Position numbers and translations under genes: made by a program. From Nitrosopumilus sp. (lineage in GTDB: Archaea; Thermoproteota; Nitrososphaeria; Nitrososphaerales; Nitrosopumilaceae): 64,000 nt of DNA. Positions 28,314 to 54,085 of the stretch are shown here, piece after piece. The stretch is taken from assembly GCA_965223425.1 (NCBI GenBank), contig OZ245003.1:224001-288000 (forward strand), read 5' to 3'. Under the pieces are notes generated by a model. That model had not been told where the DNA came from and ran no database searches. It saw only the letters and a list, made by a program, of their open reading frames with translations. Position 1 is the first letter of the stretch; each line of letters begins with the position of its first letter.

Positions 28314-28418
28314 GTCAAATTTTTTTTCTACAGCGCAAGCCATCGGGATTTTCTCTCCCTCTCCTATCAACCCCTCTGTAAATGACGTCAAATTTTTTTT
28401 TCTACAGCGCAAGCCATC
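28314..28418. repeat. Repeat-insert-repeat unit (31/32-bp duplication around 42-bp insert, period 73)
   Basis: GTCAAAT(8/9)CTACAGCGCAAGCCATC at 28314 and 28387; single copy in sister IS. Confidence 0.85.
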
Positions 28419-29172
28419 AAGATACAAAGACAGGTCCAAAAAATGACCCGTCTGGCACAAAATATACGATCACTCAACAGATCCGGGAGAATTCAAGCGC
28501 ACATGTGCGCACCATTCCAGTGCATCATGCACCCTGTATCGTACCGTCAATAGTCAAGTGACGGCCGCTTTCTTTTCGCATCCCACAGCAAACCAAAGTT
28601 TGCAAGGCCGGTACACACAACTAGTTCCTCGCGAAACTCCTCTATCGTGCCGTCGTACGGGTCTGTCATCCTTCTCTAGCTGCTCTGATGTCTCGGCCTT
28701 TTTTACCAGACGGGCCATCCTGTCTGCAGTAAGCAGGATTCCTGCCAGCACGGAATCTGCGAACCGGAGGTACCTGCACACGGTGGACTGGTCAACATCA
28801 AACAGCACACCCAGGGCATCCTGCGTCACGTTTGAGCGCCTGCGGAACAGCGCAAGCAGCAGGACGAACCTGCGGCCAGGCAGGCAGCGGTTTCCGGGAT
28901 CCGGTGTTTCGTCCTCTGAAAAGAGCGGCGCGTCTTTGCTGTGCCTCTTTGACTCTGCCACAAAGTCGTTGCAGGTGTAGTCAAACTGGTCAAGGTCATA
29001 CGGTAATCCCTGCAAGCTTTGCGCTGTTGTGCAGTATGCCGTGGATCACCTCCCTGCTGTGCAGCAGCGACGTGTCCGTATCAGGGCGGCCTGCATCTGT
29101 AACGGCCCACAGGCTGTCCTCGCGCAGCAGCTGCTACTCGCGCAGCAGGCCAATTGTCTTCTCGCGCCTGCT

Positions 29173-30639: not shown

Positions 30640-31203
30640 TATTCTTTGTTCATCTTTTCTATTTCTGGTTTTATTTTTAAAACCATTTTAAAATAATCCT
30701 TTTTGGGCTCAATACTAGCCACAAATAAGTTACTATCATCCATTGGAATGCTAATTAAAGTAACTTTGTCGCATTCTACAACTTGTTAACGTTATCATCA
30801 ATTAAAAAGCTCCAATGCATTGGAATGCTAATTAAAGTAACTTTGTCGCATTCTACAACTTGTTAACGTTATCATCAATTAAAAAGCTCCAATGCATTGG
30901 AATGCTAATTAAAGTAACTTTGTCGCATTCTACAACTGATGCTCTCTTATGCTAATTAAAGTAACTTTGTCGCATTCTACAACTGATGCTCTCTTATAAC
31001 CAATTTTATGAGACAGGTTTTGATTTCTTCCATTCTAGCATAGAGTAATGTAAAGACATTTGTAATTCACTAGGAGATAGATAATCTTCAATTCCTTCTT
31101 GTTTGATCTCATTAATTAAAACTCCTTTAGTGTTTACAACTCCTGCAAATCGCATTTTTGAATCCAATTTGATAATATTTTCACATAAATTATCATAATT
31201 CAT
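30640..31203 (-). pseudogene. Roadblock-like small protein, disrupted by frameshift and internal duplications
   Basis: IIKLDSKMRFAGVVNTKG N-terminus; C-terminal ASVVECDKVTLISIPMDDSNLFVASIEP interrupted by repeats. Confidence 0.65.
30741..30997. repeat. 43-bp repeat x3 separated by two identical 34-bp inserts (period 77), followed by a 47-bp tandem duplication
   Basis: CATTGGAATGCTAATTAAAGTAACTTTGTCGCATTCTACAACT at 30741, 30818, 30895. Confidence 0.9.
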
Positions 31204-49400: not shown

Positions 49401-50251
49401 TGTTGCAGAACTTGGATTCTAGGCACGAAATTTACCCAACTTTTGACTGGCTTAGGCGTGTTATGCAACACCTATGTTAACCACCGGACGTGTTGTGGCA
49501 ACGCATCCCAGTTGTATTTCCGATCCGTGCCTACTTGTACGGTACAAGATTTATAGCTAACGCTGGAGAGATAATTTGGTGGGATGACATGCCAATCACC
49601 TCTGGCGTGCCTTTTCCATCTTGGCAAGCTTGCGTTTGTACAGTCCCTCGTTTCGGGACTCGTATGGTGTCCTGGTCTTGAGTATGTGCCACGCTATGGT
49701 TATCATCTTGTTGGCGACAGTCACTATGGCAAGTGCATGCTTGCCTGCATGTCTTCTCTTGGAAGACTCGTAAACTGCCTTCATTCTAGTATCATGAATT
49801 ACCGCCGTGTTTGCAGCCTCGCACATAACCCAGTTGACCAGACTGTTGGTGTCAAGCTTTTTGATTCTGCCCATGTAGTTTTTGTCGCCTGACTGGTGTA
49901 TCGCCGGACACAGGCCTGCCCATGAGACGAGATTCTTTGGGGTCTCGAATCTGACAATGTCGGCTATCTCGACGGCAAGCAGCAGTGCAGAGTAGATTCC
50001 CATGCCAGTCATGCTGGCAAGAAGTTTTGCATCCTCGTTTAGCGATGCCTCCTTTTCCAGGTGTTCATCCATGTGTCTTATCTCCTCGGTAAGGCCCCTT
50101 ATCTACCGGGCACACTGACTCGGTACTATTTCGTCATGTACGGATCCCAGGCTTGCAGACTCCATCTGTTCTACGGCCTTTATGGCATACATCTCAGAGG
50201 CATCGATTTTCACATCGTATCTGTCAAGCAGGCTGTGGACGCGGTTTATCA

Positions 50252-51603
50252 CAGTAGATGAAAATGTACTCTTGACTCGCCCGGGATCCAAGTTTTAGAC
50301 CAACTGTGAAAACAATTCGGACAGAAAAAGCAATTGATCAGTGCCCCTGTCATTCCTTATGCATTACCAAAAAGATCAACTGGGACACCGTCTTGATACG
50401 GCAGGCAAGGCATTTAAAATGTTGCCTGACATTGTAGACGCGGTAGGCCTCAGCTTCTCTGGGAGACACAACGCGCTATACGGCATGGAGGATTTTATAC
50501 GGGCAGTCATATCGATGTGCAAGTCAGGCTCGTATGCCTCCGGCATCACACAGATGCTCTCAGTACGCCACGCCGCGAGCCGCATACCGTCATCGGTGTG
50601 GGTTCCGGGGAAGATAAGGGACGCATGTTCTGACAGGCACATCATGGAGAAGAGGTGCCGGGAGATGGTGCGCAAGACCGTACTGTGCGCAACACAGGCA
50701 GGCCTCCTGCGCAGAACCCCGCATGTTATGGCAATTGACACGCACAACATACCGCGGTACGACAGGAGCTCCGATACCAGAGAAAAACAGCTGGTGCGCT
50801 CAAAACACAGGAATGGAACCACCAGGTTTGAGGGATACGCCACGATGCAGTGCGTGGACAGGCCCAACCTTGATGTGGCATGCAGGCCCCTCAAAAAGGG
50901 GTACAAACCTGCCTGTATCGTGCGTGATCTGCTGCAGGACTGCGCCGATGTGGGGGTTCGGTGCAAACTGCTGCTGCTGCTTGACCGCGGATTCTTTTCA
51001 AGCGATGTCATAAGGGAGATCCGGCAGGCAGATCACGGATTCATCATGCCGGCATCAAAAACTTTTGCAATAAAAAGGGCAATACTGGATCACCACGACG
51101 GCAAGAGGGATGCAGTCTCCACGCACACGCTTATGACACGCAAGCACAAGCAGGGCCAGTCGTTTCGGCTGGTCATTGTGGCAAAAAAGAAGGGAGATAG
51201 GGGGGGGATGGGATTCGGAGAAGATACCGGACAGATATTTGGCGTATGCCACCAACCTTGACTGCCGTAACCCGCTCTTTGAGACAGAAGGGATTCCAGA
51301 GGAGTACAAAAAGAGGCGGGGCATAGAAACGGGGTACCGGGACGCAGAGAGATCAAGGCCCAAAGCCACCGGCCAGAACGCAGTCATCAGAATATTTCTG
51401 TTCTTTATGGCACTTGTAATGTATAATTTGTGGGTAATATCGGCTGCAAGATCCAGGAGATGCAATGGAGGGCGGCGTGATGTTGCCGTTATTCCTCTGC
51501 TGATAATGTTCGAGCTGATGGAAAAATTTTCTGCTGATGTGGTTCCTGGCAGGGGGATTTGGCTAGAACAGCCGTCTGCTGGCTAGTACATTTTCATCTA
51601 CTG
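50252..51603 (+). mobile_element. ISH3-family insertion sequence (frameshifted transposase 50359-51586)
   Basis: 19-bp perfect TIR CAGTAGATGAAAATGTACT; 5-bp TSD TATCA; AIDTHNIPRY, LDRGFFS, YKKRRGIETGYR. Confidence 0.92.
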
Positions 51604-51654
51604 TATCACGCGTGTCCTGTCCTGTACGGTTCTGATCCTCTGTCTGACCATGGC

Positions 51655-51764
51655 CCGGACTCCTCTTGTGTCAGCTGACGGCACATAACACATGCACCGC
51701 CAGCAAAACTATCTGAAGGTAATGGTACCGGACTCCTCTTGTGTCAGCTGACGGCACATAACAC
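51655..51764. repeat. Repeat-insert-repeat unit (exact 37-bp duplication around 36-bp insert, period 73)
   Basis: CCGGACTCCTCTTGTGTCAGCTGACGGCACATAACAC at 51655 and 51728. Confidence 0.95.
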
Positions 51765-52451
51765 TCTGGTATTGAATCCATCCTCAATACGTTTGCTATC
51801 TTTTGTGCGTCAATCTTGTCTGTCTTCTTTCCCGTCTTTGCAATTATTGCCATCTTGTAGGTGTTGGCAAGCTTTATGTCGATTCCATGTCTCTCAAAGG
51901 CGCCGTATGTGATGTTCCACATGTTGCCCGTCGTCTCGCATGCTGCCTGACATCTTCTGGCAGAATACCTGAGTGCCGTCTGTTCTGCGAATCTGTCTGC
52001 ATCTGAGACGGTGTTTTGATACTGGCCAGTATGCAAAACCTTTCCCTTCCAGTCCATGACGCATACGTCACATTTTCTCTTTCCAATGTCTATTCCTATG
52101 CTGATTGTTCCTTTGCTCATCCTTTCTATCACCTCCTTTCGGATCTTTGACGGATCGGAAGCTGCATACACCTATCAGGGCGCAAGGCCCAGTCACACAG
52201 CAGCTCGGACTGCCCCATTCAAGATCAAGGGCGCATGGCCCATATGCATACAGGGGTCGATTCATCACTACAGCTACGACGAGGTGGTTATCATGTGTTC
52301 AAACTAGTGCTCAGGGCTTGTGTATTTTCCTAACCTTTTCTTCCAGACCCACACACCCTTGTTTCCAGTGACAGTAAGGTCGGTGCGCCTGTTCTTTATC
52401 GACCTTGCATACTCGGAGAAGGGGTGAACTACTTTTTGGACTATACAACAC

Positions 52452-52943
52452 CTAGAATTCCCATCCTTCCATTCTGAACATATCCATGACATCAATTGTC
52501 TTTATGCTATATTTCTGACAAACGAATGGAATTCTAATCTTCTCTCCTCTGGTTCTTTCCTCCGTTACTACCATTCTTGTCACTGGAGATAAAGTCTGCT
52601 GTAAACTTGTTGTAGCATCTACGGCCAACGCGATAACTCATACATCTGCGTCATATTTTCTAGATTCATTTACAAGAGCAGGATATTCTCTCAACATGTC
52701 CGTAGCAATTTCTATCTGTCTATTTGTTGGTTCTCGAAACAAACCCGTCTGTTCTTTAGCCCACTCTGCTAACTGATCATCTCTCTGAGTTATCTCGTAC
52801 AGTACTTCTTTTGGCGCCATCAACAAACCACTTTTGATCAAAGATGTCAGATTTTTCCAAACCGTTGGATAAACATCCATAGGATTGTGTCGATGCAGTT
52901 CTATTAATGACGACGAATCTATGATGTAGTTATTTGGTGTCAT
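52452..52943 (-). pseudogene. DUF4411/PIN-like nuclease with one in-frame nonsense codon
   Basis: YIIDSSSLI...YDADV*VIALA...VVTEE...IRIPFVC...EGWEF*; TGA at the expected Trp. Confidence 0.82.
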
Positions 52944-54085
52944 CTCTTTGCCTTGGCTAGAACCTTCTCAAAGTTTCTTGACTTGATCGACAGATAACTC
53001 AGGGCATCAGTGTATGTTATTATATCCTTATCAAAATTATTGGCGACCAAAGAGACAAACCTGTTTCCAACCTCAGAAAGACATCTTTTGTCAGGCGACA
53101 CGACAATTCCCTTCTGTCCAGATTCTGTTTTCTTCTTGTTTTTGGAAACCGGTCTGCCAAGAACACTTTCAAACTCTGCCTTTGAGATGTGATTCAGATT
53201 TAGCATTTTGTGTAAAAGCACGGCTTTGCTGACCTTGTATTTTTTGGACAGCTTGTTCAGCGTTTCCGTATCGGTAAACTGCGTGTCTTCTTGAAACAAA
53301 TCTTCGTCTGTTTGTTCAGGCAACAAAAACGAAGACGAGAATGCATTGCACCATTTCTCTGTGTTGTTTCTTTCTACTGACGATTCCTTTGGAATGTCTA
53401 TTACAGTATCTCCGAGAAGAACATGACCAAACTCATGCATGAGCGTAAACAACCTTGCTTCTATACTGTCTTTTGAATTGACTACTATAACTGCCGGTAG
53501 TTCGTCTACTAATGCAAACCCCCTTGCATCCTCAATCTGCATTGAAAACTGGAAGACAAGAATGTTTACGTCTTCTAAAACGTCCCTCAGGTAATTAAAC
53601 AGCCTGTAAGCATCTCTGAATTGTATCTGTCTTTTCAATGTAAGGTCAAACATCCTCCTGTATTTCACGGCAGTGGCATTGGGATCATCTGTCAGGCTGG
53701 CCTTTTTTATTTTTGGTTTTGTATCACTTTTTATGTTCAAAGAGAGCTCCATTCCAAGATCTTGGAGGTTTCTTGATTTTCTAATTGCAAGAATTGTTTT
53801 TTTATCAAATACATCTTTTCTGCCTGGTAGGAATCGGTAGTCTCTCGGCAACGGCATTTGTTTCCTAGGTTCTGACAAAAGGAATGATGCCAAAGGATAC
53901 TTGTATAGCGATGCCATGTTTTTTAGCTGTCTTAACGTAGGGGATTTTGCTCCAGCTTCCAGGTCTTGGATGATCTGTAGAGTAGTGTTTAATCTCTTAC
54001 TTACTTCTTCTATTTTCCACCCGGAGCTCTCTCTGAGCCATTTCAGCACCTTTGGCTCCATCTTTACAACTAGTGGCTTTGTCAC
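52940..54085 (-). CDS. XRE-HTH plus ImmA/IrrE (M78) metallopeptidase
   Basis: N-terminal HTH, RLFTLMHEFGH, EKWCNAFSSSFLLP, KYKVS. Confidence 0.9.
   Translation of the reverse strand: MTKPLVVKMEPKVLKWLRESSGWKIEEVSKRLNTTLQIIQDLEAGAKSPTLRQLKNMASLYKYPLASFLLSEPRKQMPLPRDYRFLPGRKDVFDKKTILAIRKSRNLQDLGMELSLNIKSDTKPKIKKASLTDDPNATAVKYRRMFDLTLKRQIQFRDAYRLFNYLRDVLEDVNILVFQFSMQIEDARGFALVDELPAVIVVNSKDSIEARLFTLMHEFGHVLLGDTVIDIPKESSVERNNTEKWCNAFSSSFLLPEQTDEDLFQEDTQFTDTETLNKLSKKYKVSKAVLLHKMLNLNHISKAEFESVLGRPVSKNKKKTESGQKGIVVSPDKRCLSEVGNRFVSLVANNFDKDIITYTDALSYLSIKSRNFEKVLAKAKR

Follow-up and report, generated by a model that had tools for sequence, protein, structure and literature searches.

Judged from its sequence, the 110-bp structure at positions 51655-51764 of a 64,000-nt stretch of a Nitrosopumilus sp. 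genome (hereafter, the window) is very probably a scar left by a CRISPR adaptation integrase that carried out full-site spacer integration off target, at a non-canonical location. It consists of an exact 37-nt direct repeat (51655-51691 and 51728-51764, with a start-to-start spacing of 73) and a unique 36-nt insert (51692-51727) between the two 37-nt copies, and is placed on the coding (minus) strand of an IS110-family transposase gene. An adaptation integrase had already been proposed in the initial annotation, and this reading is supported by the match in geometry with the host CRISPR-Cas system, by the intact cas1, cas2 and cas4 genes, and by empty sites in other copies of the element. The unit and the IS110 copy that hosts it comprise the following features (window coordinates):

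51655-51691, no strand assigned: first 37-nt target copy, IS110 transposase coding sequence (codons around ...SADTRGVR), single in five other copies
51692-51727, no strand assigned: 36-nt insert, the spacer equivalent, unique in the genome
51728-51764, no strand assigned: second 37-nt target copy, with GT at its minus-strand 5' edge and intact IS110 in the flank beyond
49452-52311, minus strand: whole IS110-family element copy hosting the unit, from the extent of homology to the intact copy at C1 2063363-2064794
51728-52120, minus strand: N-terminal 131 codons of the transposase, DEDD domain (Pfam PF01548 DEDD_Tnp_IS110, E 5.8e-20)
51604-51654, minus strand: next 17 transposase codons (AMVRQRIRTVQDRT...), out of frame with respect to the N-terminal part
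50253-51603, no strand assigned: nested insertion sequence of 1351 bp with inverted ends of ~17 nt, delimited by BLAST against the intact copy and by its junctions
49596-50252, minus strand: C-terminal part of the transposase (Pfam PF02371 Transposase_20, E 8.1e-20), 98.8% identical to the intact copy

The claimed exact duplication of 37 bp around a 36-bp insert was found as described, and the minus strand of the 37-mer does start with GTGTT, so that the GT edge of the unit belongs to the minus strand and is the one with the higher coordinates. The description of the 37-mer as a palindromic repeat is correct as regards the repeat, which is exact, but the palindrome itself occupies only 10 of the 37 nt (positions 16-25) and not the whole repeat. 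The insert has a GC content of 44% and lacks a terminal inverted repeat, and its only genome-wide match is itself.

Comparison with the other genomic copies of the IS110 element revealed what the target looked like without the insert. All five of them (5/5) carry one contiguous 37-mer and no 36-nt insert, as had been predicted for other copies, and when the six sequences are aligned, the window copy is longer by exactly 73 nt; the repeat-insert-repeat structure, the presence of which in intact copies had been named as grounds for rejecting an insertion, is absent from all five. The 73 nt are an insertion in the window copy relative to the empty IS110 sites. As supporting evidence, contigs of 3/4 public runs join position 51654 directly to 51728 and skip the 73 nt, other copies or relatives being possible sources of these contigs. 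The proposal that excision restores the reading frame also holds, the uninterrupted copy at C1 2063363-2064794 encoding 364 aa and reading ...CYVPSADTRGVRAMVRQRIRTVQDR... unbroken. Because of the 73 extra nt, the transposase frame is shifted in the window copy, where the reading passes from ...ADTRGVR into the insert and reaches a stop at 51671 (ORF listing).

The assignment of the host gene to the IS110 family follows from the combination of an N-terminal DEDD domain and a C-terminal Transposase_20 domain, together with the intact paralogue of 364 aa. The nested 1351-bp insertion sequence, the ORFs of which matched no Pfam family, is a second, independent disruption of the window copy. A different insertion is present in two other IS110 copies, 21 nt away from the site of the nested element. 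Beside the window copy, two overlapping minus-strand ORFs of 381 and 101 aa occupy 52638-54085; from their sequences alone, they look like an HTH/metallopeptidase regulator and its small partner, as in mobile-element or toxin-antitoxin-like modules.

The genome is represented by two contigs of 2.51 Mb and 123 kb and ranks among the largest of those sampled from its genus. The presence of archaeal AmoA identifies the host as an ammonia-oxidising archaeon, and no McrA was found in the genome. On the same chromosome, ~1.09 Mb from the unit, array 1 comprises 74 repeats, each 36 nt long; its spacers measure 34 nt (22 spacers), 35 nt (21), 36 nt (17), 37 nt (11) and 38 nt (2), the mean being 35.3. 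It is adjoined by intact cas4-cas2-cas1 genes, with a 331-aa Cas1 that gives a full-length Pfam match (E 6.8e-64), and genes for Cas7, Cas5, the HD-helicase Cas3 and Cas6b are located beside them; this gene set defines the system as type I-B. Apart from the 331-aa protein, Cas1 is matched in the genome only by a C-terminal fragment. The small array 2, with 7 repeats of 36 nt and spacers of 35-38 nt, is an orphan, sitting among TraG/VirD4-like genes without cas genes. Since the host repeat is 36 nt long and array 1 spacers are 34-38 nt long, a 37-nt duplication around a 36-nt insert has the geometry of an adaptation event.

The genuine repeat has GT at the start of both strands. It resembles Rfam CRISPR-DR7 on the minus strand, scoring 29.6 bits where the gathering score is 37, and in this orientation the leader is on the side of the cas genes. 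Counted from the leader, the third spacer of array 1 has a perfect 34-nt self match (C1 1362329-1362362 and C1 198216-198249), with ..TTAT as the 5' flank of the match, which suggests inactive interference or a non-permissive PAM. No phage match was obtained for the whole array.

Repeats present in two copies, 30-42 nt long and with a spacing of 40-200, were collected across the whole genome. Nearly all of the background lies at multiples of 3 and represents coding tandem repeats, while the other spacings fall almost only within 71-77 (17 units at 71, 73, 74, 75 or 77), the remaining cases being four singletons at 55, 124, 148 and 169. This spacing pattern excludes a chance origin of the window unit. 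After removal of low-complexity and tandem cases, 31 units were kept, of which 26 are clean and the rest weaker. The clean units have duplications of 33-39 nt (36-37 nt in 14/26), inserts of 34-40 nt and periods of 71-77, namely 72 (10 units), 74 (6), 73 (5), 71 (2), 75 (2) and 77 (1), with a mean of 73.0 and an sd of 1.36. The two copies are identical in 17/26 units and differ at 1-3 positions in the other nine, which indicates events of a range of ages. No units were found on the 123-kb contig; four of the 31, along with a related 77-nt repeat structure, are located in the window, including a sister unit at 56165-56276 (no strand assigned) with an exact 39-nt duplication, a 34-nt insert without any other genome match, and a period of 73.

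Independent support for the insertional nature of such units came from orthologous genes. The unit at C1 2401614, with a period of 75, lies in frame in a 1117-codon ORF for a PLD-SNF2 helicase, to which it adds 25 aa (a duplicated 12-residue stretch around 13 new residues). Exactly this segment is missing from the orthologues in genomes G044 and G033; in the two blocks that flank it, their identity is 79/72% and 75/66%, respectively. Altogether, six in-frame units are located in ORFs of 260-1117 aa, and periods are a multiple of 3 in 14/31 units; both fit selection against frameshifts in genes that matter.

Several units are found in more complex arrangements. The one at window positions 28317-28423 (C1 252320), also present at C1 532096 and C1 1305101, consists of a ~33-nt duplication, with one indel within a run of T, around a ~41-nt insert, and lies at the terminus of a multicopy element. 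The whole unit is contained in three copies of this element, while another three begin with the duplicated stretch present only once, so the unit seems to have spread with the element. At window positions 30738-31015, a unit of 77 nt, made up of a 43-nt duplicated part and a 34-nt insert, occurs in a repeat-insert-repeat-insert-repeat layout with identical inserts and is followed by a 47-nt tandem duplication; the 77-nt structure may be an ectopic unit amplified by recombination, or unrelated slippage. Finally, six units lie within 24 kb at C1 1706815-1730910, along with a tandemly duplicated one at 1721182. This cluster adjoins orphan array 2 and the TraG/VirD4-like genes, and two of the donors are in the same region. 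In simulations, six units came to lie within 30 kb in 0.06% of cases.

The inserts of the census units are unrelated to one another, and for 15 of the 31 a near-exact match exists at another chromosomal site (multicopy insertion sequences in three cases); the rest are two with only weak matches, three in one repeated element, and 11, the window unit among them, without a genome match. In the 15 mapped units, the part matching the donor is 32-38 nt long with a mean of 35.1, compared with a spacer mean of 35.3 in array 1. At one junction, 1-5 nt match neither the donor flank nor the target in 12/15 mapped units, with at least 2 nt in eight; these extra nucleotides may derive from tailed prespacers, or from half-site integration completed by host repair. 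No single flank motif that could represent a PAM was found beside the donors of the 15 mapped units, and the inserts show no hairpin bias (MWU p 0.32). We also considered whether a fixed length of 72 nt is split into compensating parts, which was rejected, since units with a short duplication and a long insert are not in excess at periods 69-78. Some apparent compensation between duplication and insert lengths is expected from ambiguous boundaries; for example, the unit at 1951927 becomes 37+34 when three adjacent mismatches are allowed.

As for the choice of target, 5'-GT starts 10 of the 52 duplication edges (two per unit) versus 2.7 expected, a number reached by none of 2000 random sets, and 16 versus 5.5 if a 1-nt offset is allowed. 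Compared with random 36-mers, the targets show no greater similarity to either host repeat (MWU p 0.72 and 0.79), and their structure is not significantly above random (p 0.086). The initial annotation regarded the 37-mer as a mimic of a CRISPR repeat, but beyond its length and GT end no likeness was detected: it agrees with the genuine repeat at 12/36 positions, where the mean for random sequence is 13-14, and a search of the region against Rfam returned no match, CRISPR-DR families included (E<=1). Nor did the idea of the palindrome as an attractor of the integrase find support, as a palindrome of at least 10 bp occurs in 1/26 targets (the window unit only) versus 2.7% of random 36-mers. Given that the targets are not enriched in palindromes and the inserts are not hairpin-prone, the palindrome is incidental.

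A bona fide CRISPR array was considered and rejected for the 37-mer, which stands outside the host repeat family. The window unit contains two repeat copies and one insert in coding sequence and has no leader; the lack of a cognate repeat and of a leader, together with the single insert, shows that it is not a CRISPR array. A crRNA-like product, suggested earlier, is unlikely to arise from the unit, in which Cas6b would have no cognate repeat to cut.

The origin of the 36-nt insert was searched for in several data sets. Among phage records, a cyanophage gave the only match, of 26 nt (92%, E 0.03), which was judged to be due to chance. Plasmids gave no match, no exact match was found in IMG/VR, metagenome and genome contigs, and none with up to three mismatches in 200 genomes of the family and 150 of the genus. 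The 36 nt were found in ~484-nt contigs of two public runs from two studies, X4 and X6 (with three differences in X6), between flanks unrelated to IS110, and these contigs represent a candidate donor of the insert.

On the basis of these data, the following course of events could be proposed. Carrying a foreign prespacer of ~36 nt, the integrase would attack opposite strands of the IS110 element with the prespacer 3' ends, ~36-37 nt (one repeat length) apart, one of the attacks falling at a 5'-GT edge as in a normal repeat. Host gap filling would then leave the 37-nt target duplicated on both sides of the insert. The result would be 73 added nucleotides, a frameshift in the transposase, and a repeat-spacer-repeat structure whose "repeat" is transposase coding sequence. 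We infer that Cas1-Cas2 was the catalyst, and the enzyme is most likely the resident type I-B Cas1-Cas2 with Cas4, although an integrase of the same geometry from another system, for example the one that built orphan array 2, could be responsible. We likewise infer the order of the two attacks and the lack of crRNA processing of the unit. Some features fit this account less well: the mean period of the ectopic units (73.0) exceeds the array period of 70-74 (mode 70-71, mostly 70-72), the 1-5 extra junction nucleotides in 12/15 mapped units are not predicted by canonical integration, no common PAM adjoins the mapped donors, and apart from its length and one GT edge the 37-mer is unlike the genuine repeat.

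The abundance of such units was compared with two other genomes of the same genus. There are 26-31 units in the 2.5-Mb genome studied here, with its active-looking type I-B system and 74-repeat array. In genome G110, where no Cas1 was found and an orphan array with 36-37-nt repeats is present, three exact units were detected in the 1.2 Mb examined (of 1.89 Mb). Genome G229 has one unit, with a period of 74, in 1.6 of 1.67 Mb, located ~4 kb from one Cas1 gene; three Cas1 genes of 409-416 aa lie within 66 kb at its C1 1416863-1482301 (L052-L055), and they look casposase-like. No CRISPR array was found in the 1.6 Mb of G229 examined. Across these three genomes, the rate is thus ~11 per Mb where a type I-B system looks active, 2.5 per Mb with an orphan array only and 0.6 per Mb where no array was seen, a trend that is suggestive in favour of the CRISPR reading.

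Among other possible origins of the unit, replication slippage or unequal recombination might have duplicated native IS110 sequence, and tandem duplications do occur nearby, such as the 47-nt and 77-nt repeats at 30738-31015. This would need the 36 nt to be native, yet they are missing from the five other IS110 copies and from the rest of the genome, and the structure is repeat-insert-repeat rather than two full copies of a unit, so that such an origin is hardly credible. An assembly artefact or a chimeric join also has next to no probability. No single contig spans the whole unit in any of the four public runs, the contig graph breaking at the 37-mer. However, a 316-nt contig of run X1 (51689-52004; X1 may be the source sample and therefore not independent) runs continuously through the insert, the second repeat and IS110, giving no sign of the chimeric join that had been named as a possible objection, and assembly noise cannot account for ~26 units of the same precise geometry, one of them confirmed against orthologues. 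The insert with its flanking direct repeat has the generic footprint of transposition, which would be consistent with a miniature transposable element of ~36 nt generating an unusually long target-site duplication of 37 bp. Being unique and lacking inverted ends, the insert is not such a transposon; moreover, the 26 inserts are unrelated and 15 copy ordinary chromosomal or insertion-sequence DNA without any shared element, and we therefore regard this origin as very improbable.

More serious consideration should be given to an undescribed non-CRISPR process in ammonia-oxidising archaea, in which ~35 nt are copied in and ~37 nt of the target are duplicated, with a near-constant ~72-74 nt added and a few untemplated bases left at one junction. 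The CRISPR-like geometry would in this case be explained by shared enzyme ancestry (casposase-like or solo Cas1-like) or by coincidence. In line with it, the sd of the period is smaller than that predicted for independently varying duplication and insert lengths, the majority of mapped inserts copy the genome's own DNA, most mapped units have the extra junction nucleotides, and units are found both in G110 without a detected Cas1 and, in G229, close to a casposase-like Cas1 gene. On the other hand, duplication lengths are centred on that of the host repeat, there is no real compensation between the two lengths, the inserts are not hairpin-prone, the donor-matching length equals that of array spacers, the GT edge bias is the same as in the genuine repeat, and the rate falls with CRISPR status among the three genomes. 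We consider this process unlikely, and retain it as a minor alternative because the comparison covers three genomes only and units occur in the Cas1-less G110; off-target integration by the CRISPR adaptation machinery is the preferred explanation.

Off-target integration by Cas1-Cas2 is in itself a known kind of event, established in the laboratory, and a bioRxiv preprint (10.1101/148544) calls the natural evidence for it, from two other species, only circumstantial. In the literature searched, we found no natural archaeal type I-B case in print with ~26 events, empty sites and mapped donors. The present genome offers a natural record of ~26 type I-B, Cas4-containing events with empty sites, donors, a GT edge preference and a size distribution, and the rules by which the integrase chooses its targets can be derived from this record without experiment. 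The consequences of these events are visible in the genes affected: mobile-element genes were knocked out, and proteins that are still open gained 24-25 residues in frame. Mostly self-derived donors and the perfect self match of a leader-proximal spacer suggest adaptation on the cell's own genome, and such self-directed adaptation bears on the tolerance of autoimmunity and on the possible origin of new CRISPR loci.

Casposons are kilobase-sized, generate duplications of ~14-15 bp and have ends of their own. Unlike them, the inserts described here are 34-40 nt long, mutually unrelated and flanked by 36-37-nt duplications. The resemblance consists in a Cas1-family integrase acting in the same archaeal lineage and duplicating its target on integration, casposases being Cas1 homologues and family 1 casposons being present in Nitrosopumilus (PMC8464041, PMC5137440).

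A close biochemical parallel is provided by Cas1-Cas2 of Pyrococcus furiosus, which in vitro made non-CRISPR integrations separated by one repeat length and bordered by G (PMC6698737). The paired sites on opposite strands, their repeat-length distance and the G (here GT) at the attacked border are common to both cases. That work differs in the use of plasmids, in the 30-bp repeat and in sites sharing internal repeat positions (PMC6698737), whereas no such similarity exists here. In the type I-B system of Haloarcula hispanica, disturbed or displaced repeat motifs led to duplications off by 1-3 bp (PMC4872114). This system is of the same subtype, employs Cas1, Cas2 and Cas4 and sets the duplication by a ruler, and its drift resembles the 33-39-nt spread observed here, but the events took place in an engineered array next to the leader and not at random genomic sites (PMC4872114). 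Spacer insertions within arrays reported in 2017 and 2021 (cited in PMC8047081) likewise occurred away from the leader-proximal repeat; they hit genuine array repeats, in contrast to the units studied here, which are in unrelated genes.

In Escherichia coli, neo-CRISPR formation by the type I-E system results from off-target integration under over-produced Cas1-Cas2, according to three sources that cite the work (bioRxiv 10.1101/148544, PMC7054753, PMC9456107). The likeness to the present units is close: a spacer-sized insert at a non-CRISPR site, a duplication of the host repeat length, and Cas1-Cas2 acting off the array. Duplications in the E. coli work of Nivala, Shipman and Church (2018, Nat Microbiol) reportedly measured 28 bp, with sites near IHF-like motifs. 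Set against E. coli neo-CRISPR, the units described here are fixed events in a natural archaeal genome with a Cas4-containing type I-B system and 36-37-nt duplications, and comprise ~26 events with mostly self-derived inserts and frequent additions of 1-5 untemplated nucleotides at the junction.
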